A program made the position numbers and the translations under genes. A stretch of 64,000 bases of DNA, from IMG/VR virus record IMGVR_UViG_3300037264_006630, positions 1 to 64,000 of that record. One strand, written 5' to 3'. Below, in pieces: positions 3,233 to 52,494 of this stretch. This stretch comes from a virus. Under the pieces are notes generated by a model. The model had not been told where the DNA came from and did no database searches. It worked only from the letters and a program-made list of their open reading frames with translations. How positions within the stretch are numbered: the first letter of the stretch is position 1; each line of letters starts with the position of its first letter.

Positions 3233-3576
3233 GCACGCCTTCGGTCGAGTGGCTGTGCGGGCAGTTCGCGGACGCCGCCGCCGGCCTGCCCCCGGCCGAG
3301 GCGATCGCGGCGATCGAGCTCCTCGTGCGAGACTTGCTCGACGCCACCGAGCAGACCGACGCGCTGGAGTCGGCGCTCATCCAGGCGCTGGGCGGCAACC
3401 CAGAGACGCCCACGGCGGCGCTCCACGCCGAGGTCGCAGCGCTGCGTCGGAAGCTCAAACACGTCACCGGCGTTGCCCGTGACCTCGAAGCCATCGCCCG
3501 GCGCCTCGACAACGAGGCCAGTGGCCGACAGCGCAACCAGATCGACATCACGGCCGCGGCGCTGGTGACTCCGTGA
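3229..3576 (+). CDS. Hypothetical helical protein
   Basis: GTGA overlap with upstream stop; high GC3. Confidence 0.7.
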   Translation: MSTPSVEWLCGQFADAAAGLPPAEAIAAIELLVRDLLDATEQTDALESALIQALGGNPETPTAALHAEVAALRRKLKHVTGVARDLEAIARRLDNEASGRQRNQIDITAAALVTP

Positions 3577-3719
3577 AGCACTGCCTCGCCATCTGGACAC
3601 TGCGCCTGCGCATCAAGGCCCTGGGGCTGGTGATGCGCGCGGTCGGCGCCGTGGCCGAGGCGCTCTCCGACGCGGACGACACCGCCGACTACGACCGCAA
3701 CCGCGACCGCTTGAACTGA
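3573..3719 (+). CDS. Small hypothetical protein (48 aa)
   Basis: GTGA overlap; MKHCLAIWTLRLRIK... Confidence 0.55.
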   Translation: MKHCLAIWTLRLRIKALGLVMRAVGAVAEALSDADDTADYDRNRDRLN

Positions 3720-3723
3720 CCCC

Positions 3724-3767
3724 TTGACACCACCGGGTCATCGTGCGCATCTGCGGTGTATGAAACG
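3724..3767 (+). promoter_or_regulatory. Promoter/operator (site 2) upstream of tRNA-Arg; starts 8-aa mini-ORF MKRARPLG (3760-3786)
   Basis: TTGACA...ATCGTGCG-N9-TGTATGAA. Confidence 0.65.
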
Positions 3768-3776
3768 CGCACGCCC

Positions 3777-3850
3777 GCTCGGGTAGCTCAGTTGGACAGA
3801 GCGGCGAGATCCTAACTCGCAGGCCGTCGGTTCGATCCCGGCTCCGAGCG
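3777..3850 (+). tRNA. tRNA-Arg(CCT)
   Basis: Cloverleaf GCTCGGG/TCCGAGC; anticodon arm GCGAG-ATCCTAA-CTCGC; TTCGATC loop; no encoded CCA. Confidence 0.9.
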
Positions 3851-3875
3851 CCGTCTTCACATCGTCACGAGGCAC

Positions 3876-4232
3876 ATGACCCTTCCCATCCTCATCGTCT
3901 ACGCAGCCGTCGCCGTGCTTGTCGGCCTCGCGTTCAGGTCCACCGCGCTCCCATCGCTCGACGCGTGGCGCAACCGGGCGCGCCGGCGCCGGATCGCAGA
4001 GAGGATGGACAGGGGCGAGGCGACGGACATCGAGGTGGCGTGGTTGCGGCGCACCGCTCCGACGGCGGCGGCCAAGCGCATCTCGCTGCTCCGGGCGCTC
4101 GCCTGCGGCGCGTGCTGGCCCGTGCTCGTGGCGGGCCTGGCGGTGCTCCTCCCCGTGGCCGCGAGCCTGCTTGTCCTCTACCTGGCTGGCGTCCTGACGC
4201 TCTCCGTTGCCGACGCACCGGAGGCGTGGTGA
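3876..4232 (+). CDS. Putative membrane protein
   Basis: Two hydrophobic segments. Confidence 0.7.
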   Translation: MTLPILIVYAAVAVLVGLAFRSTALPSLDAWRNRARRRRIAERMDRGEATDIEVAWLRRTAPTAAAKRISLLRALACGACWPVLVAGLAVLLPVAASLLVLYLAGVLTLSVADAPEAW

Positions 4233-4555
4233 GCCTCGAGATCGGCGCGCGCCGCACCGCGCCGGAGGAGTGCGAGGACGAGGCGATCGAGCTGACCGGC
4301 CTCGACGTCCTGCTCACCGAGCCCGAGGCCATCAAGCTCCGCGACGAGCTCACCGCGGCCATCGACAAGCCCCGGCTCGACGCCAGGCCCGAGGCCGAGG
4401 TCATTGACGCGGTGGGTCGCTACACCCTGCTCCAGACCAAGTACGAGTGGTGCGTGCGGGAGACCCTCAACCCCGACTACGCCGAGAGCGGCGGGGTGCC
4501 CGAGTACGTCCACCTACTGCGCCGGTTCCGGGCGCTCATCCCCGAGAAGCCATGA
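4229..4555 (+). CDS. Hypothetical protein
   Basis: Overlapping start/stop at both ends; high GC3. Confidence 0.7.
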   Translation: MSLEIGARRTAPEECEDEAIELTGLDVLLTEPEAIKLRDELTAAIDKPRLDARPEAEVIDAVGRYTLLQTKYEWCVRETLNPDYAESGGVPEYVHLLRRFRALIPEKP

Positions 4556-5724
4556 AGAAGAACACCCCGACTGCGAAGGAACGCATCCGCCACGCCCTCA
4601 GCGTGATCCGGCCGATCACGCGAACAGCCGAGCGCGTGGCCACGCTGGCTCTCCAGGCCAAGAGCCTCACTTCCCCGTTCGGCGTCATCGGCCTGATGTC
4701 GAGTGCGGCAAACGCACTCGGAGAGCAGTTCTCGGGGGAGGCACCCGCACCGTGCGAGACGGGGTTCCGCGTGCCGGTGTCGCACGCCTTCCTGGTGGCC
4801 GCGTACAAGGCGGCTGGCTGTACGGTGACGGTGGAGATCAAAGAGAAATCCAGCGGCGGAGCCGGAGCTATCACCGAGATATCCGACGGGGATCACAGCC
4901 TCAAGGTCTACATCGACGGGTCGGTGTCGGTGATCGGCGGGGCCAAACACGACGCTGCGGTCAGTCGTCTCACCGAGGTCTTGGACGCTCACCTCCCACC
5001 ATCGCTTCTGGTGCAGTGGCGTCCCGGCGAAGGCGGCTACCCGTGGGTCACTGAGGAGCGGAGGCTCACCGAGTACCGTTCTGATCAGGGGCGTGCCATC
5101 GCCGACTGCACCATCCCGATGCTCGACAAGGGAGGCCGCGTCATCCTCCTGAACGGCAAGCCTGGCGTGGGCAAGTCGACCATCGCCGAAGAGATCGCGC
5201 AGTACATCGGCGGGCGCGTCATCGTGTTGGGCGGCGGCATCTTCTCTCCCAAGGGGGAATACGACGCCCACACCACGACGTCTGGCTGCGACATCGAGCA
5301 GCTTGCGCTGCTCACGCCAACGGTCATCGTCATCGACGACGTGGACAAGATCCACATCCCGCTCGCCAGGCTCGAGAAGCTCCGCGCGATCGCGCGCCTG
5401 GTCATCATGACCGCGAACAACGGCGAGTACGACGACGTGCTAGACGGTGCGCTCGATCGGCCCGGCCGTACGGACGAGACCTTCGAGGTCATGCCCGACC
5501 GCGGCCTCACGCCCCAGCCCCCGTTCGACAAGCTCGACCGGGAGATCTGGACCAAGATCAAGGGCTGGCCCATCGCCCACCTGAACGAGCTCCGCCGGCG
5601 CATCGAGGAGCGGGGGACGTCGCCGGCTGCGCTCAACCTCACCGAGCTCGAGCGGCGGTTGAAGAAGGGGACGCGGAGCGGGTCGGTGCTCCACTCCCAC
5701 GGCGACGACGGCTTGACACGCTAG
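4552..5724 (+). CDS. AAA+ ATPase
   Basis: Walker A GKPGVGKS, Walker B IVIDDVD, sensor MTANN, Arg finger ALDRPGR. Confidence 0.9.
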   Translation: MKKNTPTAKERIRHALSVIRPITRTAERVATLALQAKSLTSPFGVIGLMSSAANALGEQFSGEAPAPCETGFRVPVSHAFLVAAYKAAGCTVTVEIKEKSSGGAGAITEISDGDHSLKVYIDGSVSVIGGAKHDAAVSRLTEVLDAHLPPSLLVQWRPGEGGYPWVTEERRLTEYRSDQGRAIADCTIPMLDKGGRVILLNGKPGVGKSTIAEEIAQYIGGRVIVLGGGIFSPKGEYDAHTTTSGCDIEQLALLTPTVIVIDDVDKIHIPLARLEKLRAIARLVIMTANNGEYDDVLDGALDRPGRTDETFEVMPDRGLTPQPPFDKLDREIWTKIKGWPIAHLNELRRRIEERGTSPAALNLTELERRLKKGTRSGSVLHSHGDDGLTR

Positions 5725-5756
5725 CGGTTCGCGCGTACGTTCGTGCGTATGAAACG
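5713..5756 (+). promoter_or_regulatory. Promoter/operator (site 3); starts 8-aa mini-ORF MKRSEAPP (5749-5775)
   Basis: TTGACA-17-TACGTT-7-ATG; TTCGCGCG-N10-CGTATGAA. Confidence 0.8.
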
Positions 5757-5771
5757 CAGCGAGGCGCCGCC

Positions 5772-6014
5772 GTGAAGACCAGCCGCGTGGACGGCGACCC
5801 CGTCCTGGTCGAGATCACGCACCGCGTGGTCAGCGCCGCTGGCACCGTCGTGAGCAACCACGACCGCCTGTCCGATGCGCAGTCCATGCGCGACCTGCTG
5901 GCCAAGCAGAAGAGGTCGGGGGTTCCGCTGTACGGCAAGGGGCTGCGCATCGAGGAGCGACGCGAGGGCTGGTGGCACGAGGTGTTCGAGCTCCATGCCC
6001 CGGGTGCGCCGTGA
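5772..6014 (+). CDS. Hypothetical protein
   Basis: GTG overlaps the mini-ORF stop. Confidence 0.7.
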   Translation: MKTSRVDGDPVLVEITHRVVSAAGTVVSNHDRLSDAQSMRDLLAKQKRSGVPLYGKGLRIEERREGWWHEVFELHAPGAP

Positions 6015-6541
6015 GCCGCGTTCTGCTCGGCGTCGCGCTCCAGTGCGACCAGTGCAAGCTCTTCTTCGGTAGCGACTCGCTCCACCTGCGGGCATCTCCC
6101 GATGGCCGTGGCTGGTCGAGCACGGAGGTGGCGCGCGCCCGCGCCAAGCAGTGCGGCTGGCTGGTGGCCGTCCGCAAGCAGCTCGGCCCGAGCGGCAAGG
6201 GCCAGCCGCGATACACCCTGGTCGACTTCTGCCCCGGGTGCAGCGCGACCCTCACCGCCACCGTGATCGACGGCGTCATCGAGCACGACCCGGGCGTACT
6301 GCCGGCCCTGCCCCACGTCCAGCGAGCGGTGCTTGCCGACCTGTGCCGTGCGCCCGCACGCCAGTGGCTCCGCACCCGGGACCTGGGCGGTGATCACGAC
6401 CAGCACGTCGCGGGCGCGCTCGCCGCCCTGACCGAGAAGAAGTGGGCCGATCGGCGGGAGCGGCCGGTACCCGGCCCACGGATGATGTACGAGTACCGCG
6501 CGACCAAGGCCGGTCGCGCGCGATCGAAGGCGGCGACGTGA
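6011..6541 (+). CDS. Hypothetical protein with CxxC pairs and possible C-terminal wHTH
   Basis: CDQC...CPGC; YEYRATKAG. Confidence 0.65.
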   Translation: MSRVLLGVALQCDQCKLFFGSDSLHLRASPDGRGWSSTEVARARAKQCGWLVAVRKQLGPSGKGQPRYTLVDFCPGCSATLTATVIDGVIEHDPGVLPALPHVQRAVLADLCRAPARQWLRTRDLGGDHDQHVAGALAALTEKKWADRRERPVPGPRMMYEYRATKAGRARSKAAT

Positions 6542-8610
6542 GCGCCGGGGACGTAGCCATCGTCCAGGCCGCCGAGGATGCTGGGCGGGCCGAGGTCGAC
6601 GCCAAAGAGGAGGCGGACACGGGGCCGGTGCTCAACGCTTGGTATTGGGTCAAGCCGCCCAAGGAGACCGGCAAGAAGCGCGGCCGGTCGGAGCTGGGCT
6701 GCGTGACCCACATCGGCTCGAACTACGCGCTCATCTCGTACGTCGGGAGGCACAGCCCGACCAGCCGCATCCATCTCGAACGCTTCCCCGAGCGCTGCGA
6801 ACGCGAGCCGGATCCCAAGACGTACATCGACCGGCAGGTAGGGCTCCACCGAGACCACGTGCGCGAGCTGATGGGCGAGGTCCGCGACCTGACTCAGCGG
6901 CTCGGCGTGGGTGCTTCGGTCGGCCTGCCCGCAGGCGCCGCCGAGACGGCCGCGCTCTCCACTGCCAGCGCCGACCTCGGCGCCTACAAGACCGCGCTCA
7001 TCAAGGCCATGGAGAAGACGCTCCCCGACCTCTTCAAGCAGATCGCGGAAGCGAACGAGCTGATGGCCGTCTGGATGATGGCCGAGGTGTTACCGGTGAA
7101 GGCCGAGGCCACCGTGTTGGAGCGCTCGATCAAGACGATCGAGACGCGGGTCGGCAACGTCGAGCTCTACGCCGGGCTGACCGAGGACATCGAGCTGATC
7201 GCCGACGGGGAACCCGCCGCCGTGGACGAGCCGGTCCGGCTGTTCCAGCGGCGCTGCTACATGGACGAGGAGTGCTTGGCCGCCTACGAGGCGGGCGGCA
7301 TGGACTACCAGAGCGTGGGCGAGTTCGCCGCATGGCTCGCCAAGCCCGCCAACCGCGACTGCATCCTGCCCTTCCCCCGCTGCGTCGTTGCCTTCCGCAT
7401 CCGTCGGCACGAGAAGGAGAGGCACGCCGACTCCCTCGCCGGGTTCATCGCGATCGCCAACGAGGCCAAGGCCGACCGCAAGACCTTCCTCTTCATCCGC
7501 AACGGCGAGCGCGTCTACATGTTGGCGACGGCGATCGAGTTCGACGAGAAGCTGTTCCCCGACATCGAGAACCAGAAGCTCCACGGCAAGCTCTGGGTCG
7601 AAGACCCTCGGTACGGCATCAAGACCATCATCACCGACGACCGGTACCAGGGCTTGCTTGAGGACTACGTGCGCGACAAGGCTGCGTGGGACGCGACGCC
7701 CAAGTCGGAGAAGCGAAAGAATCCATGGGATTCAGCTCCCCAGAGCCCGGAAGGTCACTGGACCGAGTACGACCGGCGCACGGTCTACTACGACGACATC
7801 GAGGCCCGTATCCAGAGCGACATGGCCAAGCACAATCGGCTGGTCCTGGTGCTCCAGGGTCTGCTCGATCGGTCGCTGGTGCTGCACCCGCACCCGCCCT
7901 ACAAGCTCTGGACGCCCGAGGGCTTCGCCGCCGCGCTGCGTCCGATCTACGAAGACGCCCACGGCATCACCTCCGGTGCCGCGCCGGAGTGGAGGGTCTA
8001 CCGGGAGCAACTCGCCAAGAGCATCCGGCCCGGGACCGTGGTCATCGGCCAGCATCGTGCTTGGTTGGAAGCCGAGGCCGAGAAGGAGAACGACCGCCGG
8101 GACCGCCGCGGCCGGTCGAGCAGCGGTCGCGACCTCGAGACGTACCAGCCCTACGGCAACCCCGGGCCCGGTCTGCTCGCTCGCGTGGTCAGCATGTCAC
8201 GCGACCGCAAGACGGCGACCTTCGAGTGGATGCGCAAGCGGCAGACCGGGCGGTGGGTCCCGAACCCGAAGAAGCCCGGCTGGCGCATGTGGGTGGTCGA
8301 TGGCGAGTTGAAGACGCGCTTCACTTGCCCGGTCGAGATCCTCTTCAACGTCGATGCCTACCAATCTGGCGACTTCCACCTGTTCTTCGACGATCCACGC
8401 ACCAGGGCGGACTATCTCCAGTGGGCGCGATTCCTCCTTGCGGCCGAGGACTACAAGGCCGGCAAGCGGAAGGTGCGCACCGACGAGCTCGACGAGGACG
8501 AGGACGACCCGGACACCGGCCCCATCAAGGCCGACGACGACTCCGATGCGAGCGCCGACACGGACGAGTCGGACGACGGCAACATCCTCGACGAAGACAA
8601 CGAGGACTGA
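6538..8610 (+). CDS. Large hypothetical protein with coiled region and very acidic C-terminal tail
   Basis: 690-aa GC3-rich ORF; D/E-rich tail. Confidence 0.85.
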   Translation: MSAGDVAIVQAAEDAGRAEVDAKEEADTGPVLNAWYWVKPPKETGKKRGRSELGCVTHIGSNYALISYVGRHSPTSRIHLERFPERCEREPDPKTYIDRQVGLHRDHVRELMGEVRDLTQRLGVGASVGLPAGAAETAALSTASADLGAYKTALIKAMEKTLPDLFKQIAEANELMAVWMMAEVLPVKAEATVLERSIKTIETRVGNVELYAGLTEDIELIADGEPAAVDEPVRLFQRRCYMDEECLAAYEAGGMDYQSVGEFAAWLAKPANRDCILPFPRCVVAFRIRRHEKERHADSLAGFIAIANEAKADRKTFLFIRNGERVYMLATAIEFDEKLFPDIENQKLHGKLWVEDPRYGIKTIITDDRYQGLLEDYVRDKAAWDATPKSEKRKNPWDSAPQSPEGHWTEYDRRTVYYDDIEARIQSDMAKHNRLVLVLQGLLDRSLVLHPHPPYKLWTPEGFAAALRPIYEDAHGITSGAAPEWRVYREQLAKSIRPGTVVIGQHRAWLEAEAEKENDRRDRRGRSSSGRDLETYQPYGNPGPGLLARVVSMSRDRKTATFEWMRKRQTGRWVPNPKKPGWRMWVVDGELKTRFTCPVEILFNVDAYQSGDFHLFFDDPRTRADYLQWARFLLAAEDYKAGKRKVRTDELDEDEDDPDTGPIKADDDSDASADTDESDDGNILDEDNED

Positions 8611-10229: not shown

Positions 10230-10961
10230 TGGACGAACCCTATTCGATGGCCACCGAGATCGCGAGCTTGGTCGCCGAGGCCAAGGAGTGGTACGAGGCG
10301 GCCGATGCCGACTGGCGGCGTGAGGCCGAGCTCGTCCGCCGCACGGGATGGGCAAGCCCCAGCACGGCATGGGCCGCCATGATCGAGAGCGCCGCCCGCG
10401 TCATCGATCGGGCCCGTGGGTTCGATGGTGGGTCGCCCTCGCCGCGTCGCGAGGTCTCCGACCACCGGAAGATCGAGCGGGACGAGATGGTGGTCCGTGC
10501 TTCGGATGTCGCGGGCGCCGCCGCCGAGATCCACCGTCTCCGCGCCGAGCTCGCCCGCATGAAGGGCGACAGCCTGGAGTTGAGGGCCCGGATGCTCGAC
10601 AGCACGGCCAAGGCGCTCCCACCCGCGTTCATCGTGAGGCCGACGCCGCAGTACGTCGAGGACTGCGAGCCCGGCGATGTGGTCGAATGGACCGGGCCCG
10701 TCATCGTCGCGTGGAGCGACTCCCACGTTTTCACCGAGACGCGCACCGAGGCGATCGTCCCGGGCCATCCACCCCAGCGGCGGCCAGAAGTGGGGCGAGG
10801 GCCGGCTGGCGGAGGTCAGCTTCGCTGCGCCTGGCGTCTTCGAGTGGGAGTCCCGCCGTGCGCTGATCCGCCACGAGCAGCGGATCAAGTCGGTCCGCAA
10901 GTCGGTGGCCGGCCCCAACCTGCCCGCCGTCCTCGTTCCCGCCCCGGAGACCACCCGATGA
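10229..10961 (+). CDS. Hypothetical protein with apparent +1 frameshift near 10778
   Basis: Coding-like frame switches at the CCACCCC run; the second frame ends in a TGA overlapping the next ATG. Confidence 0.55.
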
Positions 10962-14427: not shown

Positions 14428-14744
14428 CCGACGCCGCACCCGCCAAGCCCATCCCGATCATCGACCTCATCGACAAGTACGGTGAGGCGTGCGTGGGCAA
14501 CGGCGCGAAGGGCGCCGGTCACGCGGAAGACCACGCGGTGCTCGTCGCCAAGACGAACCTCCACGACGCGCTCCAAGCGCTCGCCAAGCTGGTCGACGAC
14601 GCCTGCGCAGCCTCGTACTGGCACGGCAACCACCTCCGCTTGCCCGGCAACGAGCATCGCGAAGCCGAGGCGGGCCGTACCCGCAACGCCCTGTGCGCGG
14701 CCATCGGCATCAAGCCCGAGACGCCCTGGCCGGTGAAGCCGTGA
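14424..14744 (+). CDS. Hypothetical protein
   Basis: GTGA overlaps. Confidence 0.65.
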   Translation: MTDAAPAKPIPIIDLIDKYGEACVGNGAKGAGHAEDHAVLVAKTNLHDALQALAKLVDDACAASYWHGNHLRLPGNEHREAEAGRTRNALCAAIGIKPETPWPVKP

Positions 14745-14768
14745 CGACTCGACCCGACGGCTGGCCTC
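14741..14768 (+). pseudogene. 5' fragment (MTTRPDGWP) of a gene split by the transposon
   Basis: Removing the element plus one TSD copy gives MTTRPDGWPLCPKCGADE... Confidence 0.8.
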
Positions 14769-14800
14769 GGCTTTGCCCGCAAACCCTCCGGAGTGGCGGT

Positions 14801-14833
14801 GCTGACCGCAAAGGGGGAGGCGCTGACCGCAAA
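14801..14833 (+). repeat. Two subterminal GCTGACCGCAAA repeats, left end
   Basis: 14801-14812 and 14822-14833. Confidence 0.85.
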
Positions 14834-15075
14834 CCCGCGGGGATACGCGCCGGTCGGACGCCATCATCACGCAACCCAGAGCACGGTCGGCCGATAGAGG
14901 CGGTCGACAATGAGTGAGCGGGCACCAGTGATCCACGCGAGGGCTGAGGACGGCGGCCGGCCTTGTTCCTTAGCCTCCGGTGCGCTGACTGAAACCGAAG
15001 ACGTCACCGCAACACCCCAGCGGCAAGAGATCCCTTCGGTTGACGCGGATCCACGGTGTGGCTACAACGTGGCCC

Positions 15076-15279
15076 ATGGCGAAAACACGGGGGAAGACAA
15101 AGGCCAGGCGGCCGAAGCCGCTGAAGGACGACTTGATCCGCTTTCGGGTCACGTCCGAGGAGAAGACGGGGCTGGAGGGGGCCGCGACCAGGGAGGGGAT
15201 GGACCTCTCGACGTGGATCCGACGGCTGGCACTGCAAGCTGCCGGCTTGCTTCCTGGCGCCTCGGACATTCACCGATGA
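15076..15279 (+). CDS. RHH/DUF1778-like regulator (possible RM controller)
   Basis: IRFRVTSEEKTGLEGAATREGMDLSTWIRRLAL; promoter TTGACG-17-TACAAC upstream. Confidence 0.8.
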   Translation: MAKTRGKTKARRPKPLKDDLIRFRVTSEEKTGLEGAATREGMDLSTWIRRLALQAAGLLPGASDIHR

Positions 15280-17849
15280 GGGCGGTTTCGGAGGCGGAGA
15301 CCGTCATCAAGCGCATCCTTCCTTATCTGGCCCGTCGCGGGTACGACATCGAGAAGGATCTGAGCTTTGAAGACCCCGTTGGCATGACAGCCACCGCCAA
15401 GAGTGGCTTCATTGACATCACGGTTCATTGCCAGCGCACCAGCCCCATCTTTCTCATCGAGGCCAAGCGGGACGGCACGAAGATTACCGTGAAGCACAGA
15501 GAGCAGGCGCTGGAATACGGAAAAGGCATTGGCGTCTTACTCGTGGCCGTCACGAACGGAAAGTCTTTCGAGTTGCACAATGCGACGACGAGAAAGCCGC
15601 TGTTCCTCAATGGGGCCGCGATGGACCGCATTCCGTCACGCAAGGACCTGCTTAGCGAGGTGCTCAAGCAACTCAAGCGAGATCCCGCCATCGATCGAAT
15701 TACGATTAGTGCGGACCGCTCGTTGCCCTACCGGCCTGGACTGCCGCTCTCGAAGCTCAATCACCTCATCAAGCAGTGTCATAACTCGATCCGGAAGATT
15801 GAGAAGAACGAAGAACATGCCTTCGCTGACTTCAGCAAGTTCATGTTCTTGAAGCTGTTGGAAGAGAAGTGGGACCAAGAGCAGGAGGTGCCTCCATACA
15901 GTTTTACTTTCCACGAGCTGGCCGCGACGCCGAGTGGGAAAGGAGATCGCGTTCGGGCAGCCATTAAGAGCATGATCGGCACGATTCAGAGCATCACGCG
16001 CTACGGTGACGTTCTAGCCGACCCGATTAGGCTGACCAAGGATGCGTCCTACCAAAGCATCGTTCGTCTCATCGCATCCGTCTCGTTCACCGACTGCGAC
16101 CTGGACTCAAAGGGGGCGGCCTTTGAGTATTTCGTCAGGGCAACCCTCAAGGGGAAGAAGCTCGGCCAGTATTTCACACCCCGCCCGCTCGTGAAGTTGA
16201 TGCTCCATCTCGGCAGATGGGAGCAGATCGTCAATAGCCTGTCCACCGGCGGTGACTTCAAGGTTCTTGATCCAGCGTGTGGGACGTCGGGTTTCCTTGT
16301 TCTCGCGATGAATCACTGCTTGGATGAAATCGATCGTCGACTCGAAGCGAAGACTATCCACAAAAACACGGCGACCGCACTCAAGAAGCGTGTCCGAGAA
16401 GACGTGTTCTACGGAATCGACGCACATAACGGAGTTGCTTGCTCAGCCAAGATGAACATGATCGTCGCGGGGGATGGCTCTAACAACATTCGCTGTGCCG
16501 ACTCGCTCAATGAGCCACATCTGATCCCACCGTACAAGCGGCACGCCGACGGCAAGGAGTGCCCGGACGGCAAGGCGCATCTGATTCTAACAAATCCGCC
16601 GTTCGGGACATCTGAAGCTGAATCCTTGACGCCTGCCAGTGCGGCAACGTTCGCGATCCGTTCGGCGCGCGGCCAATCGCTCTTTATTCAGAAGATGATC
16701 CAATCAGCGCACGATGACAGCCTCATCGTGACTGTCATCGATGAGGGCGTGTTGAACACCGCGTCTTATCAGAGTTTGCGGGAACTAGTTCTGAAGTCCT
16801 GCCGCATCGAAATGGTGCTCCAGTTGCCGGGGACAACATTCAAGCCGAACAAGATCGACGTCCGATCGAGCGTCCTCGTGCTGCGGAAACGCGCAGAAAG
16901 TGACGAGGACGTCGCCGATGACTATCCGGTTACGTTCGCCGCCATCGACTCGATGGGCTACGAAGGATCGGGCGACGAAGTACGCGGCTTCGACTTGCAC
17001 CGCTTGATCGCAGAAATCAAGTCTATCGACGCCAGCAAGCTCACCGAGGCGCAGGTCACGACGGGCTACCACTGGGAAGCTTTCCGTACTAACTCGCAGA
17101 CGATCGCGACAGACAAGACGCGTCGCCTGGACGTGCGCTACTGGCACCCCAGCGTTCGTCTTCCGATCATGCAACTCCGCGGGCTCAAGGGCACGGTGTC
17201 GGTCAAGGAACTAAACAAGATCCCCACGCGCCGTGGCAAGAGCCCGCCATCGGCCGAGTACGTCACGCCACAAGAGGGACACGCGCTAGTCGTCAAAGCC
17301 GGTTCAAACATCTCGAAGACCGGCGAGTTGATCATCGGCGGTGACTACGTCGAGCGCCAAGTATACGAGGAGTATGCTATCGCTGGGCTCAACCTTGAGG
17401 ACGGCGATGTGCTCCTAGCGTCGACCGGTGAGTACGTGTTGGGTAAGTGCTGCGTCTTCCGCAACCAGATCGGAGATGGAGCGACACCAGGGATCGCCGA
17501 TGGTCACGTCGCAGTGATCCGAGTCGACCAAACGAAAGTTTATCCAGAGTACCTCTGCGACTACCTGCGGAGAGGGTTCGGTCACGATCAGATCGCCAGG
17601 ATCCTTACCGGGTCAACAGGGCTGATCGAGATCACTCCGGATGACGTTGACGGCGTGCTTGTTCCAAAATTGCCTTCGCTGGCCAAACAGAAAGCGCTTA
17701 GCGATAGCCTTCGGCACGGCGAACGCGTGGCGGCCGAGGTGATCGCGAAGGCCGCCGAAAAGCTGCGAGCGGACGAGCAACTGTTCCGCAACACCACCAT
17801 GCCGCCCGAGTTCAAGTTGCTAGGCTACCGCGTCATCGGCGGCGACTGA
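15276..17849 (+). CDS. Single-chain restriction-modification enzyme (HSDR_N nuclease + N6-adenine MTase + TRD; Type IIG/IIC-like)
   Basis: FIDI...LIEAKR nuclease motif; GQYFTPRP, VLDPACGTSGFL, TNPPFG; C-terminal HsdS-like TRD; lower GC than flanks. Confidence 0.9.
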   Translation: MRAVSEAETVIKRILPYLARRGYDIEKDLSFEDPVGMTATAKSGFIDITVHCQRTSPIFLIEAKRDGTKITVKHREQALEYGKGIGVLLVAVTNGKSFELHNATTRKPLFLNGAAMDRIPSRKDLLSEVLKQLKRDPAIDRITISADRSLPYRPGLPLSKLNHLIKQCHNSIRKIEKNEEHAFADFSKFMFLKLLEEKWDQEQEVPPYSFTFHELAATPSGKGDRVRAAIKSMIGTIQSITRYGDVLADPIRLTKDASYQSIVRLIASVSFTDCDLDSKGAAFEYFVRATLKGKKLGQYFTPRPLVKLMLHLGRWEQIVNSLSTGGDFKVLDPACGTSGFLVLAMNHCLDEIDRRLEAKTIHKNTATALKKRVREDVFYGIDAHNGVACSAKMNMIVAGDGSNNIRCADSLNEPHLIPPYKRHADGKECPDGKAHLILTNPPFGTSEAESLTPASAATFAIRSARGQSLFIQKMIQSAHDDSLIVTVIDEGVLNTASYQSLRELVLKSCRIEMVLQLPGTTFKPNKIDVRSSVLVLRKRAESDEDVADDYPVTFAAIDSMGYEGSGDEVRGFDLHRLIAEIKSIDASKLTEAQVTTGYHWEAFRTNSQTIATDKTRRLDVRYWHPSVRLPIMQLRGLKGTVSVKELNKIPTRRGKSPPSAEYVTPQEGHALVVKAGSNISKTGELIIGGDYVERQVYEEYAIAGLNLEDGDVLLASTGEYVLGKCCVFRNQIGDGATPGIADGHVAVIRVDQTKVYPEYLCDYLRRGFGHDQIARILTGSTGLIEITPDDVDGVLVPKLPSLAKQKALSDSLRHGERVAAEVIAKAAEKLRADEQLFRNTTMPPEFKLLGYRVIGGD

Positions 17850-17859
17850 CGCCGGAGAG

Positions 17860-18093
17860 CTACTCGTCGTTGGCTGCCTTCAATGCGCTCGCCAAGATCC
17901 AGCCTGACAGCCCGACCCCGGCCTTCTCGGCGGCGAAGCGGAGGATGGCCTTCTGCTCCGCGGTGACGCGGATGATGATGTGCTGGTCCTTGCGGACCGG
18001 CTTGCGGCGCACGATCTCGCGAACCTTGGTCGAGCGCGCCTCGGGGAAGTCGTCGGGCTTGGCGGGTGACTTGGTCTTGCGCGGGGTCGCCAT
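17860..18093 (-). CDS. RHH/DUF1778-like regulator divergent from the transposase
   Basis: IIIRVTAEQKAILRFAAEKAGVGLSGWILASAL. Confidence 0.8.
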   Translation of the reverse strand: MATPRKTKSPAKPDDFPEARSTKVREIVRRKPVRKDQHIIIRVTAEQKAILRFAAEKAGVGLSGWILASALKAANDE

Positions 18094-18176
18094 GTGTCCG
18101 GAGCGTATTAACAAAACGGCGAGCGCCCGTCAAAGACTCGGGTTGAACGTCAGACCGTGGTGTTAATACATCAGAC
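18094..18176. promoter_or_regulatory. Divergent promoters with inverted TATTAACA/TGTTAATA boxes
   Basis: 18106-18113 and 18161-18168; each overlaps a TAATAC -10. Confidence 0.65.
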
Positions 18177-19403
18177 ATGAACACGGCGACGATCACGGAT
18201 GCGCGGCAGGTTCGGGGGCTCGCGTTGGCGAAGGGGAAGGCGAAGAAGATCAAGCCGGTGGCCGGGTCGACGTGGCTGGTGCCGTCGGCCTCGGGCGGTG
18301 GTGGCGGGTACGTGGTCGACGTCGACAAGGGGACCTGCTCTTGCCCGGACGCGGAGGAGCGCGGGGTCCGCTGCAAGCACCAGTTCGCGGTTGCCTACGT
18401 CCGGGCTGAGATCGCGATGCCCGACGGCGCGGTGCTGGTGGCGGAGACGCGGGTCACGTACGCGCAGCCGTGCTGGTCCGCGTACCACAAGGCGCAGGTG
18501 ATGGAGAAAGACACGGTCGAGCTGCTCCTGCGCGGGCTGTGCGACGGCATCGTGGAGCCGCAGGCGAAGAAGACGGGGCGCCCGCCGATGCCGCTGGCGG
18601 CGCTGGTGTTCGCGGCGACCCTCAAGGTCTTCTCGACGATGAGCGGGCGCCGCGCGTCGAGCGACATCCGGGCGGCCAAGGAGCGCGGGCGCCTCGGGAC
18701 GGTGGCGCACTACAACACGATCTCGGAGCACCTCGCGCGCCCCGATCTGGCGCCGCTCCTCAAGGTGCTGGTGACCGAGTCGGCCCTGCCGCTCAAGGCG
18801 ATCGAGTCGCAGTTTGCCGTCGATGCCACCGGCTTCGCGACCAACACCTACGCGCGCTGGTACGACGAGAAGTACGGCGAGGAGAAGCGCGCGGCGCGGT
18901 GGATCAAGGCGCACGCGATGGTCGGGACGAAGACGCATGTGATCACCGCCGTCGAGGTGACGGAGTCGAACGTCCATGACTCGCCGATGCTGGCGCCCGT
19001 CCTCGCGACGACGGCGGCCAACTTCAACATGCGTGAGGTGTCGGCCGACAAGGCGTACCTCGCGAACGACAACCTGACGGCGATCGAAGCGGTCGGCGCT
19101 GTGCCCTACATCCCGTTCAAGATCAACTCGCAGGGCAACGGGTCCGAGGCGTGGCGCCGCCTCTGGCACCTCTACAGCCTCAACCGGGAGGACTTCCTCG
19201 GGCACTACCACCGGCGGTCGAACGTCGAGAGCGTGTTCTCGTCGGTCAAGCGCAAGTTTGGCGCGGCCGTGCGCGCGAAGCTGCCTACGGCGCAGGTCAA
19301 CGAAGTTCTCCTCAAGTGCATCGCCCACAACCTGTCTATGCTGGTCCACTCGATCCACGAGCTGGGCGTGGATCCGAAGTTCTGGCGCGGGGGTGGGCAG
19401 TGA
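18177..19403 (+). CDS. DDE transposase with N-terminal SWIM zinc finger
   Basis: CSCPD...CKH SWIM; FAVDATGF, HDSPML, SADKAY, YHRRSNVESVFSSVKRKFG. Confidence 0.92.
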   Translation: MNTATITDARQVRGLALAKGKAKKIKPVAGSTWLVPSASGGGGGYVVDVDKGTCSCPDAEERGVRCKHQFAVAYVRAEIAMPDGAVLVAETRVTYAQPCWSAYHKAQVMEKDTVELLLRGLCDGIVEPQAKKTGRPPMPLAALVFAATLKVFSTMSGRRASSDIRAAKERGRLGTVAHYNTISEHLARPDLAPLLKVLVTESALPLKAIESQFAVDATGFATNTYARWYDEKYGEEKRAARWIKAHAMVGTKTHVITAVEVTESNVHDSPMLAPVLATTAANFNMREVSADKAYLANDNLTAIEAVGAVPYIPFKINSQGNGSEAWRRLWHLYSLNREDFLGHYHRRSNVESVFSSVKRKFGAAVRAKLPTAQVNEVLLKCIAHNLSMLVHSIHELGVDPKFWRGGGQ

Positions 19404-19744
19404 GCGCGCGGCGGCGGCGGGACGAGCCGGGCCGCGTGGCCTACGCGGTGGGTTGCGACTCCGACCTGACCGCGGAGGAGCAAGCGCACGCGCGCACGGC
19501 GCTCCGGTTCCTGCGTTCGCGGTGCGGCACATGGGAAGCGGTGGCACGGGTGCTGCGCTTCAACGGCACGCACATCGTGGACGCCAACACGGGGCGCGCG
19601 TCGATCACCGCGAGCATGGCGGTGCGGATCGCGCGCGTGGTCAAGGCGCCGATCGACGACGTGCTGACCGGCCGCTTCCCGGCGCCGAACACCTGCCCGC
19701 ACTGCGGCCACGTCGGACCCACCGAGGAGATCGCAGCGTCGTGA
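19400..19744 (+). CDS. HTH (XRE-like) protein with C-terminal CPHC
   Basis: GTWEAVARVLRFNGTHI...ITASMAVRIARVVKAPIDDVL. Confidence 0.7.
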   Translation: MSARRRRDEPGRVAYAVGCDSDLTAEEQAHARTALRFLRSRCGTWEAVARVLRFNGTHIVDANTGRASITASMAVRIARVVKAPIDDVLTGRFPAPNTCPHCGHVGPTEEIAAS

Positions 19745-20819
19745 TCGTCGCCCTCCGCTTCCACGGGACGGGCTTGCCAGCGGTCGCGCTGTTGCCGGGG
19801 AAGCGCGTCTTCACCATCGGCTCGGGCACCGCCGATGTTGTCGTGCCGCGCATCGTCGCCAGCGAGGTTGCTGACGTTCACGCGATCGTCGAGCGGACCG
19901 CCGACGGGCTGCGGTTGACCGAGTCCGGGGGCAACGGCATCTACCGCAACGCGTGGACGCCCGCGGTGACCGAGTTGCTACTTCACGCGGGGCAGGTCGG
20001 GTGGGTCGGGTCCGTGGCCGTGCAGGCGCTTGACGATCGGCTCGTGACCCTACGGCCGCGCGTCGCGTGGAACCTCGGGCTCGACGCGCACGCCGCGGTC
20101 GACGACGCCCTGGCCGTGATCGCCACCCGGGCGCCGCTCCTCTTGCTCGGCCCGCGCGGCACCGAAGGCGAGAGGCTGGCCCGCGCCATTCACGAGGCCA
20201 CGGACGGGGCGCGCGCGTTCGTGGAGACCGACCGCCCGATCCCGCACCTTGAAGACGCGACCCTGTACGTGGACCTCGACGGCCTCACCCGGCTCCCAGC
20301 CTCGCGCGCCGCCGAGCTGCTCCGGCCGTGGCGCGACCTCCGGGTCATCTTCAACGCCACGTCCGAGCGGCATGCCAGCGGCCTCTTGGACAGCCACCTT
20401 GCCAGCATCCACACGCTCACCCTGCCGCCCTTGGCCACCCGCCGCGCCGAAGTCCCCCGACTCCTCGGCGCCCTCTGGCACCAGCTCGGCTCCGGTTGCG
20501 ACCCCGCCACCGACCTTTCCCCCGCTGCTCTCCTCAGCCTCACCGCCCACGACTGGCCCGGCAACCTCGCCAGCCTGCGCGACAACGCCCGCCGCATCCT
20601 TGCCTATCACCACGCCGGTGGGCTCCGGCCCGCTGCGCGTACCCTTGGCATCAAGCACCAGACCCTCGCAGGTCACTTCAACCGGATCGGGTTCCCCATG
20701 CTGGACGAGATCCAGAGAGAGGAGCGGCTCGACCGGAAGCACCGGGCGCCGCGCGCTGACCGCAAACCTCCGAGGCTGACCGCAAACCCACGGTCACTGC
20801 GGTGTTTGCGGGCAAAGCC
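19741..20819 (+). CDS. Degenerate FHA + sigma54-activator-like AAA + HTH protein; no stop inside the element
   Basis: FTIGSG..DVVV; LLLLGPRGTEGERLARAIH; HDWPGNLASLRD; AARTLGI. Confidence 0.75.
20755..20786 (+). repeat. Two subterminal GCTGACCGCAAA repeats, right end
   Basis: 20755-20766 and 20775-20786, same orientation as the left-end copies. Confidence 0.85.
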
Positions 20820-21558
20820 GCTGGCCTCTGTGCCCGAAGTGCGGCGCGGACGAGGCGTACTCGCTCGCCATCCCCGCCGACCCGGCGGTCGATCTGCGGT
20901 GCTACGTCTGCGGCCCCATCAAGGTCGGCGAGAGCATCGGCCTGTTCGGCAACTGGACCCACGGCAAGGTGCCCGAGCTCCTCCAGGCCATCGAGGCGTT
21001 CGGCTCGGCCCGGTACGCGTCCGGTCGAGCTCGCGGGACTGCGCGAGAGCCTGCGGGACAGCACCGACCCCGAAGACCGGAACACGGTCGACTTCGCGAC
21101 CATGGCGCTCTCCCCCAGCGAGTACACCGACGCGGATGGCAACCCGATCCGCTCGCCGCGAGGTGGCAGCAAGTTCCGGCGCTCCGAGTGCCGCGACTAC
21201 TGCGCCCGCGTCATCGCCCGCCGCGACGGGCTGCCCATGCCGCCGGACCAGAGCGGCCTCGCCATGGAGGTCTACTCGTACGGGCGGCTGGTCTGGTCGC
21301 GGTGGGACCGCCCACGTCTCCGACTGCGGCTGCGCGATCTGCGCCTCCGACCAGCTCGAGCGGGTCTGTCGCCGGGGCGCCAGCACTCCGGCCGACCAAC
21401 TCCCGCTCTTCAGCCTCGCAAACGACGCCGAAGCCTCGATCATCCACCGCCGCATGCGCGACCTCGCACCCGGCCGGGAGTACGGCGTCTGCGTCGCCTT
21501 TGGCGACACCGTGCAGGGGCTCTACCGGGACGGCGGCTTCATCGGACCGATGAAGTGA
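20820..21558 (+). pseudogene. 3' part of the interrupted Zn-finger gene; two apparent +1 frameshifts (~21010, ~21308)
   Basis: LCPKCG...CYVCG in frame with 14741; the coding signal then moves through the other two frames. Confidence 0.6.
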
Positions 21559-21949: not shown

Positions 21950-22087
21950 TGACACAGCAGATAGCACAGCGATACGTCCAACAAACACAAGCAGTGTCGA
22001 TGGCATACGAGATGTGCGTGAAGTCGGATAGCACAGCAAGCAGCACAGGCCGACAGCACAGCAAAATACCGGCCGGAGAGCACAGCC
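21911..22087 (+). repeat. Cluster of about 7 GA(T/C/G)AGCACAG direct repeats (iteron-like)
   Basis: Copies near 21911, 21935, 21951 (partial), 21960, 22027, 22040, 22052, 22077; A/C-rich intergenic DNA. Confidence 0.8.
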
Positions 22088-22088
22088 C

Positions 22089-22414
22089 ATGCGCGTGATC
22101 GGTTCCGACGTGAAGGTCGTCATGATGATCGCCGGACAGCCGGTCGAGTACCTCCCCCTGAGGTCCAACGGCTTGTCCGTGCCCAGGGGCATCCACGGGT
22201 CAAGAAGGGCGACGTGGATGCCGTGTTCGATGCGGTGGCTCGCTTCGCGAAGCGCGCGGAGCGCTGGCACGCCTCCCGGGGCTGGTGCTTCCCCCAGCGG
22301 GTGTGGCGCCACCGCCGGAACCAGCGAGCGGAAGCCGCTGCGGCGCGTCGGGCCGGGCATGCGCTCGCCCGCTCCGAGCGACGTTGCCAGCGGCACGGAA
22401 TGGAATCCGCATAA
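22089..22414 (+). CDS. Hypothetical protein, apparent -1 frameshift at GGG ~22199
   Basis: ...RGIHG|VKKGDVDAVFDAV... Confidence 0.4.
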
Positions 22415-22455
22415 AGAGACCGATCCGCCAATCGGTTGTTCGGTTCACTCGGACC

Positions 22456-22644
22456 GTGGCGTCTTACCTGCGGGTGACCCGAGAGCGCCCCGACTGCCTC
22501 CGAGCCAGCCTCTACACGGCCGCGCTCCTGGACGGCATCCTCACCGCGAACCACCGCCGCATCCTCGCCACCCACGTCGAGGCGTGCCGCCGGTGCAAGC
22601 GCGTGCTTCTCGTCTGCTGGTTCGAGAACCTGCTCACCACGTAG
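22456..22644 (+). CDS. zf-HC2 (anti-sigma-type zinc finger) small protein
   Basis: ALLDGILT...ILATHVEACRRC (HxxxCxxC). Confidence 0.65.
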   Translation: MASYLRVTRERPDCLRASLYTAALLDGILTANHRRILATHVEACRRCKRVLLVCWFENLLTT

Positions 22645-22677
22645 CCTCGCCCGCCGACCGCATGCGACAACGCCGGC

Positions 22678-22992
22678 ATGGCCGAGATCAAGACCGAGCC
22701 GCGGCGCCTGGTCGACCTGAACCCGCAGTGGATCCGGAACCACGGCACGGACGAGGTCCACGGCGTTGCCTTCGACTGCCCCTGCGGCGCCAAGGAGACC
22801 TGCCCAGTACGTGGCCGGTGCCTCGTCCCCACCAAGACCTGCCTGACCGGCGCGCCCGTCACCGCCGACAGCGCCGCCATGGGCTGGACGGTGACCGGGA
22901 CCAACTTCGACGACCTCACGCTCTCGCCGTCGGTCAACTACCGCGACCACTGGCACGGCCACGTCACGAACGGCGAGCTCACCTCGGTCTAA
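22678..22992 (+). CDS. DUF6527-like protein
   Basis: FDCPCG...WTVTG...LTLSPSVN...HWHGHVTNG. Confidence 0.7.
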   Translation: MAEIKTEPRRLVDLNPQWIRNHGTDEVHGVAFDCPCGAKETCPVRGRCLVPTKTCLTGAPVTADSAAMGWTVTGTNFDDLTLSPSVNYRDHWHGHVTNGELTSV

Positions 22993-50000: not shown

Positions 50001-51137
50001 ATGCTCGCCATAATCCACAAGCGCCAGCGCTACCGCGTCTACCCGACGGCCGAGCAGGCTGTGCGGCTCGACGCGTGGACACACGCGCTGCGGTTCCTGT
50101 GGAACCTGGCGCACGAGCAGCGGTTGGAGTGGATGCGGAAGCCGCGCTGCGAGCGGCGGTATCCGACCAACTACGATCAGAGTAACCAAGTCACGCCGCT
50201 GCGAGCGGAGCTGCCTTGGTTGGCCGATGTGCCATCGCAACTCTGCTCGACTATTTTGGCTAGGTTGCATGTGGCCTGGCGGCAGTGTTTCGGCAAGATC
50301 TCAAGGGCGCCGCGTTGGAAGAAGCGTGGCGATGCGCTCTCCATGGGCACGTCATCTAGATGGCACCTCGTCGGCACCACGCTCCATTTCCCGAAGCTCG
50401 GCCCGATCCGAGCCGTGGTTCACCGGCCGCTCGAGGGCGTGGCGAAGTCCTGCACGCTCCTCCGGGATGGGGACCAGTGGTTCGCATCGATCGTCTGCGA
50501 GGTAACGATCCCGGCGCCAACGCCGCGAACCTCACCGGTGGTAGCGATCGACCGCGGGATCACCGTTCTCGCGGCGACGTCGGACGGGGAGCTCATCGCG
50601 AACCCACGGTTCGGGGAGCGGTCGGCGAGGCGGCTGGCACGAGCACAGCGGCGGGTCGCGCGGCGGAAGAAAGGCTCGGCGAACCGGGCCAAGGCGGCGC
50701 TCGCGGCAGAGAAGATCCACCGGAAAATCCGGCGCCAGCGGGCGCACCACCACCACGTTCTATCGACGAGGATCGCCAAGAGCCACGGCGTCGTCATCGT
50801 CGAGAAGTTGAACGTGGCGGGGTTGAAGCAGGGTTCGTTGGGTCGCGTGATCTCGGACGCCGGCTGGTCGCAACTTGCTTCGATGCTGCGGTACAAACTG
50901 GCGTGGACAGGTGGGATTCTCGTCGAGGTGCCAGCGGCATACTCGTCGCAGACCTGCTTCGCCTGCGGCGCCATCGACCGGGCCTCTCGCAAGGGGATCG
51001 TGTTCCGCTGCACGTCGTGTGGTCACGTTGACCACGCCGACCTGAACGCAGCGAAGGTATTGAAAAGCCGTGCGAATCGCTCGGCTCTGCCTGGGGAGGG
51101 TGCTGCTTGTGGGCGCCCCGTGAACCAGGAAATTTGA
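50001..51137 (+). CDS. tnpB: TnpB RNA-guided endonuclease (IS200/IS605 family)
   Basis: YRVYPTAEQ HTH; RuvC residues VAIDRG, IVEKL, ADLNAA; Zn ribbon CFACG/CTSCG. Confidence 0.95.
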   Translation: MLAIIHKRQRYRVYPTAEQAVRLDAWTHALRFLWNLAHEQRLEWMRKPRCERRYPTNYDQSNQVTPLRAELPWLADVPSQLCSTILARLHVAWRQCFGKISRAPRWKKRGDALSMGTSSRWHLVGTTLHFPKLGPIRAVVHRPLEGVAKSCTLLRDGDQWFASIVCEVTIPAPTPRTSPVVAIDRGITVLAATSDGELIANPRFGERSARRLARAQRRVARRKKGSANRAKAALAAEKIHRKIRRQRAHHHHVLSTRIAKSHGVVIVEKLNVAGLKQGSLGRVISDAGWSQLASMLRYKLAWTGGILVEVPAAYSSQTCFACGAIDRASRKGIVFRCTSCGHVDHADLNAAKVLKSRANRSALPGEGAACGRPVNQEI

Positions 51138-51805: not shown

Positions 51806-52494
51806 GCACCGCTCCTCACCGCTACAAGAGCCGGCCCGGCCGCGCCATCGACTCGTGCGAGCGCGAGGGCTGCGACGTCCAGCGCAAGCACGTCATGCGG
51901 CGCGGCCGGAAGACCCCCGTTGCCGTCTACCGGACCGGGGTCGGAGGGCTGTGGTCGGAGGCCCGCCCGCCCTGCATCAGCGTGGCGCCGGACGACGCGC
52001 TGCCCTACGTGCCGCCGCGCGGGCGCGACCCCATCCCGTTGGCGCCGATCGGGAGCCGCATCATCCACGTCGCGACGCTGGTGATCTACGGGGTCGGCGA
52101 AGCCGGCCATCACCACGGGCCCAAGGGCTCCTGCCTCTACTCGCTGCGGCCAGACAACGTGCTGCGCCCCGGCCTGTGGGAGCACCCCGGCGGCAAGGTC
52201 GAGAAGGGTGAGACGGTCGACGAGGCCGGTCTCCGCGAAGGCGTCGAGGAGCTCGGCGTCATCGTCCAGATCGACAGCACCCTCACCACGATCAGCATGG
52301 ATCTGGTGACCCACGTCATCGTCCTGACCGCGCTCGCCGCGCGCATCCAACCCAACGAACCGGCGCCGCAGCCGCTCACGTCGAAGAAGCTGCTCTGGCT
52401 TGAGCCGCAACAGGCGATCGACCACCTGCCCTGCTCGCCCGGTACCTACCCGATCCACCGCGCCGTGATGAACTGGATGGAGCGCCACCGATGA
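51802..52494 (+). CDS. Nudix hydrolase with N-terminal extension
   Basis: WEHPGGKVEKGETVDEAGLREGVEELG. Confidence 0.9.
   Translation: MSTAPHRYKSRPGRAIDSCEREGCDVQRKHVMRRGRKTPVAVYRTGVGGLWSEARPPCISVAPDDALPYVPPRGRDPIPLAPIGSRIIHVATLVIYGVGEAGHHHGPKGSCLYSLRPDNVLRPGLWEHPGGKVEKGETVDEAGLREGVEELGVIVQIDSTLTTISMDLVTHVIVLTALAARIQPNEPAPQPLTSKKLLWLEPQQAIDHLPCSPGTYPIHRAVMNWMERHR

Follow-up and report, generated by a model that had tools for sequence, protein, structure and literature searches.

The locus

The stretch analysed here comprises the first 64 kb (positions 1 to 64,000, hereafter the window) of the 184,943-bp IMG/VR record IMGVR_UViG_3300037264_006630, and it contains a transposon of six genes that lies inside a phage gene and carries a single-chain restriction-modification (R-M) enzyme. 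The record is a metagenome assembly with direct terminal repeats (DTR), is rated 100% complete and encodes a large terminase (52491-54236 in the window); on this basis it is a complete virus genome. GC content is 68.6% in the window and ~69% in the phage, whose host is probably myxobacterial. A first-pass annotation of the letters alone had proposed an intact, IS903-like cargo transposon with one transposase and an R-M gene, inserted into a phage gene, and that reading is supported by the present analysis. The element occupies 14769-20819 (6,051 bp, or 6,060 bp with one copy of its target-site duplication, TSD) between terminal inverted repeats (TIRs). The features of the locus are as follows.

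14741..14768, plus strand: 5′ fragment of the interrupted gene, 9 codons; its GTG overlaps the stop of the upstream open reading frame (ORF) as GTGA
14760..14768: left TSD copy, GCTGGCCTC
14769..14784, plus strand: left TIR, GGCTTTGCCCGCAAAC
14803-14812 and 14824-14833, plus strand: two left subterminal repeats, TGACCGCAAA, in the same orientation as the left TIR
14834..17889: variable cargo slot, with no DNA homology to the closest relative, L006
15040..15279, plus strand: RHH1, ribbon-helix-helix (RHH) protein; Pfam NikA-like, 32.2 bits (cut-off 27)
15276..17849, plus strand: single-chain enzyme of 857 aa (R-M-S); HSDR_N_2, N6_Mtase and an S-subunit-like C-terminus
17860..18114, minus strand: RHH2, ribbon-helix-helix protein of the backbone; NikA-like, 29.9 bits (Pfam cut-off 27), TacA1, 22.4 bits
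18177..19403, plus strand: transposase, 408 aa; Pfam SWIM, 26.9 bits, and DDE_Tnp_1, 84.1 bits
19400..19744, plus strand: XRE-type helix-turn-helix (HTH) protein of the backbone, 114 aa, with a C-terminal CxxC
19741..20819, plus strand: degenerate gene resembling enhancer-binding proteins (EBPs); beta-rich N-terminus, AAA+ remnant, lid and Fis-type HTH
20757..20786, plus strand: two right subterminal repeats, TGACCGCAAA, oriented as the left ones and hence opposite to the right TIR
20804..20819, minus strand: right TIR
20820..20828: right TSD copy
20829..21558, plus strand: 3′ part of the interrupted gene; Zn-ribbon-like, CPKCG...CYVCG

Ends, target duplication and the healed gene

The boundaries of the element are clearly defined. 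Its TIRs are perfect over 16 bp, the left one being matched at the right by its exact reverse complement, and they are flanked on both sides by an exact 9-bp TSD, for which the chance of a match at both ends is ~4e-6. The 16-bp repeats starting GGCTTTG and the 9-bp duplication had both been recognized in the first pass, and the coordinates given above confirm them. Across the entire 184,943-bp record, the TIR sequence occurs only twice even when two mismatches are allowed (a reversed control pattern gave 0), only one transposase of this kind is encoded, and no insertion sequence (IS) copies flank the element. Exact copies of the 16-bp TIR were also found in public contigs, in at least 120 metagenome and 9 viral stretches; however, 0 of the 129 loci fetched encode any protein of the element, and these matches, among those listed, are therefore due to chance.

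Removal of the element leaves MTTRPDGWPLCPKCG in frame. The 6,060 bp are a multiple of three, so the frame that opens at GTG 14741 continues across the healed site, where it reads MTTRPDGWP followed directly by LCPKCG; GC at third codon positions is 0.93-1.0 just to the right of the element. The earlier claim that excision heals the phage gene thus holds, although the start codon lies at 14741-14743 instead of the implied 14744.

Subterminal repeats also occur at both ends. TGACCGCAAA has four exact copies in the window, each within an end of the element (two per end) and on the plus strand, and these copies reproduce the inner TIR motif. The left end consequently presents three sites in tandem, while at the right end two sites face the terminal one and a hairpin can form (z = -3.25). 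A layout of repeats in one direction, built from other motifs, is also present in the related elements L006, L009, L004 and L011 described below. The inner TIR motif, CCGCAAAC, is a probable binding site of the transposase and is present twice more inside each end; we infer that these subterminal repeats would serve the transposase, or else a regulator of the backbone, as extra binding sites and would thereby make the two ends differ in function.

The transposase and its relation to IS903

The transposase joins an N-terminal SWIM finger (C54, C56, C66, H68) to an IS5-type DDE domain (D216, D291, E351). It belongs to the IS5 family, with 145.4 bits against NCBIfam NF033579 (cut-off 140), the DDE triad and the Y-(2)-R-(3)-E-(6)-K signature. 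In an alignment of 14 homologues, the Cys and His residues of the SWIM finger are invariant, and D216, D291, E351, Y344, R347 and K358 are invariant or nearly so.

IS903 makes 9-bp target duplications. An IS903B copy of 1,057 bp was fetched for comparison, and although it has no TSD, both of its ends are GGCTTTGTTGAATAAATC, which bears out the earlier statement that IS903 TIRs start with GGCTTTG. Like IS903 and IS903B, the element has a DDE_Tnp_1 transposase with the DDE triad and the Y-R-E-K signature, ends starting with GGCTTTG and a 9-bp duplication, and the termini and duplication recur in six relatives. In contrast, IS903 measures 1,057 bp and has one gene for a transposase of ~320 aa, whereas the element measures 6,051 bp and has six genes and a transposase of 408 aa. 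The IS903B transposase aligns with that of the element at 28% identity, and only over 191 aa of the catalytic domain (E 6e-14), the SWIM finger is an addition relative to IS903, the two TIRs are unrelated past the first 7 nt, and the subterminal repeats of the element are asymmetrically laid out. The size of ~1 kb, the single gene and the closely alignable transposase of 300-320 aa that mark the IS903 group are all lacking in the element.

Relatives of the element

Homologues of the transposase are numerous, with 2,242 found at E <= 0.001 among 8,000 candidates examined. The closest named ones come from Kofleriaceae, Polyangia and Myxococcales metagenome-assembled genomes, and 13 of 201 sampled genomes of the class carry the transposase in one or two copies each. 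Six further independent insertions were delimited by GGCTTTG ends and exact 9-bp TSDs. Their lengths range over 3.5-5.9 kb, and a bare IS is not among them. Five come from myxobacterial genomes or from metagenome contigs of high GC, and the sixth from a metagenome contig of 51% GC.

L006/L007: 3,837 bp; identical 16-bp TIR, transposase 81% identical
L004: 3,888 bp
L009 (= L030): 5,851 bp
L031: 5,379 bp
L042: 3,487 bp
L011: 4,338 bp, at 3417-7754; 17-bp TIR, TSD CAATCAGCC, 51% GC

The first-pass annotation had suggested a search for copies with other cargo, and such copies, with similar ends and 9-bp TSDs, do exist in myxobacterial genomes; the L006/L007 element also pairs a homologous transposase with the identical 16-bp TIRs. 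In two further elements (L032, 109-5951; L038, 8145-12351), the flanks match as 8-mers offset by one base and no clean 9-bp duplication is seen; either the ends are differently placed or the flank has mutated.

Comparison among relatives separates a common part of the element from an exchangeable one. In 15 of the 18 relative loci screened, an XRE-HTH gene directly follows the transposase gene, and in several an RHH gene precedes it. DNA homology between the window element and L006 is confined to the leftmost 65 bp and to the part that runs rightward from 17890 to the end, and the variable slot is therefore 14834-17889. In the window this slot contains RHH1 and R-M-S, while in L006 it contains a 206-aa HTH_3 gene. 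RHH2, the HTH gene and (in closer relatives) the EBP-like gene make up the conserved backbone, which is translationally coupled to or divergent from the transposase gene. Since this backbone is common to relatives, the first-pass count of five passengers has to be reduced; all six genes are real, yet three of the five proposed passengers belong to the backbone and only RHH1 and R-M-S are variable. Elsewhere in the family, elements bear regulators, a ClpP-like SDH protease or genes without an assigned function.

The R-M gene itself recurs in other mobile settings. L011 is a minimal family member. Besides the transposase gene and the R-M gene, it contains a Zn-ribbon gene of 54 aa, which directly abuts the R-M start, and an ORF of 63 aa, and it adjoins HNH and Mrr_cat genes. 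Its R-M homologue is 70% identical to that of the window, while its transposase is only 43% identical. Because the cargo is far more alike than the transposases, exchange or capture of the R-M cassette appears to have taken place on more than one occasion. Another homologue is found in L043 (2842-8541), where an IS1595-type transposase is followed by a NikA-like RHH gene (51% identity to RHH1 over 41 aa), GmrSD and the R-M homologue, whose protein is present on 22 contigs. This locus looks like a defence-carrying transposon of the IS1595 family. It resembles the window element in having the same kind of RHH gene and the same R-M family beside an IS transposase, but differs in its unrelated transposase family and its extra GmrSD cargo. 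Two more R-M homologues adjoin IS1595 fragments.

No published description of an IS5-type family with a SWIM finger was found in the literature searched, ISfinder being outside its reach. The SWIM-DDE elements would appear to be a widespread, IS903-related family that was not found described in that literature.

The restriction-modification cargo

RHH1 likely controls the R-M gene; its stop overlaps the R-M start as ATGA. An ORF of 979 aa that opens at 14910 was considered as the R-M gene and rejected, since its first 122 codons overlap RHH1 in another frame; the start is the ATG at 15276. At 57.5%, the GC content of the R-M gene stands apart from that of the other parts of the element (~66-74%) and of the phage (69%), and is thus foreign (lower) for its surroundings.

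The predicted enzyme combines a PD-(D/E)XK nuclease (D47, E62, K64), a gamma-type N6-adenine methylase (NPPF) and a C-terminal specificity domain. The latter is recognized by NCBIfam MAD5 (E 2.3e-5) and PADLOC Specificity_I (E 1.7e-10). A type IIG-like enzyme is marked by a single chain that combines, as here, a nuclease motif with methylase motifs I and IV and with a domain for target recognition, and the arrangement is that of the type IIG / IIB R-M enzymes (RM.BsaXI, MmeI-type), in which nuclease, gamma N6-adenine methylase and specificity share one polypeptide. RM.BsaXI (PDB 8w0p) is the nearest solved relative by sequence, with only the methylase core aligning (E 4.9e-19). The N-terminal nuclease of R-M-S differs from it in being of the HSDR_N_2 type, with cleavage predicted from sequence.

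The regulatory backbone

RHH2 is a paralogue of RHH1 (42% identity), is 72% identical to its L006 counterpart and is transcribed divergently from the transposase gene across a 62-bp spacer. On the other side, the start of the HTH gene overlaps the transposase stop, and the start of the EBP-like gene overlaps the HTH stop, both as GTGA couplings. A Pfam search with the HTH protein gave no match; its predicted model is a five-helix fold of XRE / lambda-repressor type (predicted local distance difference test, pLDDT, 83, with the core >90), and the top Foldseek matches are ClgR, DdrO, C.BclI, C.AhdI and HigA (probability 1.0, E only ~0.03). The protein is thus predicted with confidence by its model to be of XRE type. 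A scan of the element for sigma-70 promoters and terminators gave nothing above background. RHH2 and the transposase/HTH/EBP-like operon probably regulate transposase expression or transposition.

The last gene of the operon had been called FHA-EBP-like in the first pass. The gene is real and EBP-derived, but the FHA part of the name is weak (Yop-YscD_cpl, E 0.024), and the predicted fold of the protein is poor (mean pLDDT 56). Sigma54_activat matches it at E 0.045 only. Its Walker A motif reads GPRGTEGE, without the lysine of GxxGxGK, and in comparison with the genuine EBP in L036 the segment that holds GAFTGA is gone. With the lysine and the loop segment lost, identity as a sigma-54 activator was ruled out, and the protein is best described as an EBP-derived remnant. 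The sigma-54 core GGCAC-N6-TGC is not enriched in the window (5 found vs 4.5 expected); given this and the missing contact loop, a link of the element to sigma-54 was dropped.

The EBP-like gene also reaches the right end of the element without meeting a stop. In phage DNA its frame remains open for another 245 codons, up to 21558, and the homologue in L006/L007 likewise runs out through the identical TIR for 87 codons. When the element ends are abutted, as in a circle or a tandem junction, the frame closes after 11 codons in the window and 14 in L006, at TGA codons that lie in the left subterminal repeats. In the window, L006, L009 and L031, one end bears a Fis-HTH or EBP-like gene that faces outward and has its stop inside the TIR or beyond.

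Interpretation and alternatives

The best explanation of the whole is an intact unit transposon, or transporter IS, from an IS903-group-related clade of IS5, to which we give a probability of about 0.85. It would move by DDE transposition with a 9-bp staggered cut of the target, by analogy with IS903, and the slot between the left end and RHH2 would hold exchangeable cargo. Its most likely source is the chromosome of a myxobacterial host, from which it would have passed to the phage and entered a small, dispensable gene behind codon 9. The R-M gene probably serves to keep the transposon in whichever replicon it has entered; within the phage, its product could methylate the phage genome and cleave DNA of competitors or the host that lacks the modification.

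Several points weigh against this interpretation. The coding signal of the interrupted gene shifts frame twice, around 21025 and around 21295. Stops are absent from all three frames over 20777-21551 (~770 nt), and the junctions lie at no homopolymers. The target gene is either a pseudogene or the bearer of two indels; given the two frame changes, it looks broken beyond the insertion itself, and the insertion may be old or the gene may already have been dead. Pervasive assembly indels were rejected as the source of the frame changes, with only 8 events flagged in 64 kb, 3 of them at the target locus. No empty site or sister phage was found when the neighbouring genes and the pieces of the target gene were compared with IMG/VR, with GenBank phages (DNA and protein) and with a set of 5.8 billion proteins. 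A search of viral and metagenome contigs for the healed-site pattern at the codon level gave no empty site either, and a HMMER search with the last piece of the target gene returned nothing but a match to a repeat protein and a fragment of 34 aa with 100% identity to the query. With no empty site or related phage found, the time and direction of the jump are unproven. The EBP-like gene without a stop could be a decaying or tolerated fusion. The record is a metagenome assembly, and some members of the phage population may lack the insertion. The nuclease activity of the cargo is predicted only, given a PADLOC label discussed below, and transposition, methylation and cleavage are all functions read from sequence. 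Apart from the target gene, further frame changes without a stop were noted at 10425-10935 and 22080-22815, where phage genes close to the insertion may overlap or be frameshifted.

One alternative is that the element is an old, fixed resident, which entered the phage lineage long ago and is now immobile and partly decayed or domesticated. The first pass had instead read the unmutated ends as the mark of a recent jump. The TIRs and TSD are indeed intact, but at the indel density of the target (2 per ~730 nt) only ~0.14 changes would be expected in their 50 nt; the intact ends therefore do not prove a recent jump, and the two frame changes fit long residence equally well. The EBP-like gene, with its stop missing from the element, also speaks for this alternative. 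Against decay, however, the transposase with its catalytic residues and all other genes are intact, the GC content of the R-M gene is still foreign (57.5% vs 69%), and the EBP-like gene of L006 also lacks a stop, which makes this a feature of the lineage. An old, fixed resident is rather unlikely.

A second alternative is that the cargo acts as a methyltransferase only, with a nuclease domain that is inactive or otherwise used, and shields the phage from host restriction. The best PADLOC model for R-M-S, matched over nearly its full length with 767 bits, is labelled Type II methyltransferase, and the homologues bear source names such as 'N-6 DNA methylase' or 'type I restriction enzyme M protein'. 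Yet the HSDR_N_2 domain is kept, and D47, E62 and K64, together with NPPF (N440-F443), are invariant in 16 homologues of 48-72% identity; for the nuclease residues this would be difficult to account for unless catalysis is under selection. The R-M family is also found with GmrSD and other defence genes on mobile elements, and a role confined to methylation therefore seems rather improbable.

Finally, a host-chromosome transposon joined to the phage contig by the assembler is very improbable, since although the record is a metagenome assembly and repeats can cause chimeras, a chimera would not create the identical 9-bp duplication at both junctions, removal of the element heals the ORF in frame with matching codon bias on both sides, and the contig has a single copy of the element.

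Relation to known systems

By the definition in PMC9330008 the element qualifies as a transporter IS (tIS), for which ISKpn21, ISKpn65 and ISRel10 of the IS1202 group are examples (PMC10132070). As in a tIS, an IS-type transposase and a single TIR pair enclose passenger genes, and the cargo slot could be mapped against L006. The cited tIS carry one extra ORF without known function, whereas the element has a multi-gene regulatory backbone and an exchangeable defence slot.

IS insertions are reported to be poorly tolerated by phages, and transposons in phages are rare finds. P1, which harbours IS1 along with the EcoP1I res/mod genes, is like the present phage in tolerating an IS or transposon and in encoding restriction-modification. 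The R-M genes of P1, however, lie outside its IS, whereas here the R-M gene is transposon cargo and the carrier is a 185-kb DTR phage. In 2012, no transposon carried by an active phage was known to the authors of PMC3429520; phage-plasmids that carry resistance transposons have also been described (PMC9600943).

Seen against this background, the locus offers a concrete case of a nested vehicle, with a defence gene in a transposon in a complete 185-kb phage. It also gives a sharper view of the transposon family, with its conserved regulatory backbone, asymmetric ends and cargo slot, and the presence of the R-M family on a second family member and beside IS1595 transposases bears on how defence genes spread. 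A wider proposal, which we regard as tentative and at odds short of even, is that the SWIM-DDE elements form a large, undescribed IS903-related family that is never bare, has its own regulatory module (RHH, XRE-HTH and EBP remnant) and unlike ends, trades type IIG cassettes with other IS families through its slot, and can deliver these cassettes into complete phages as a self-marking weapon against competitors. If this were true, a phage would gain from the insertion such a weapon against its competitors.

Other mobile-element genes of the phage

The phage has a second mobile-element gene in the window, a TnpB-type gene at 50001-51137, just upstream of the terminase region, with OrfB_IS605, Cas12f1-like TNB and HTH_OrfB_IS605 domains. 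Beyond the window, at ~66.4-67.4 kb of the phage (L002, 1108-2175), a 355-aa ORF with no Pfam match weakly resembles the SWIM-DDE transposase, at 30-40% identity over two short stretches (E ~1e-7), and may be a remnant of another DDE element.

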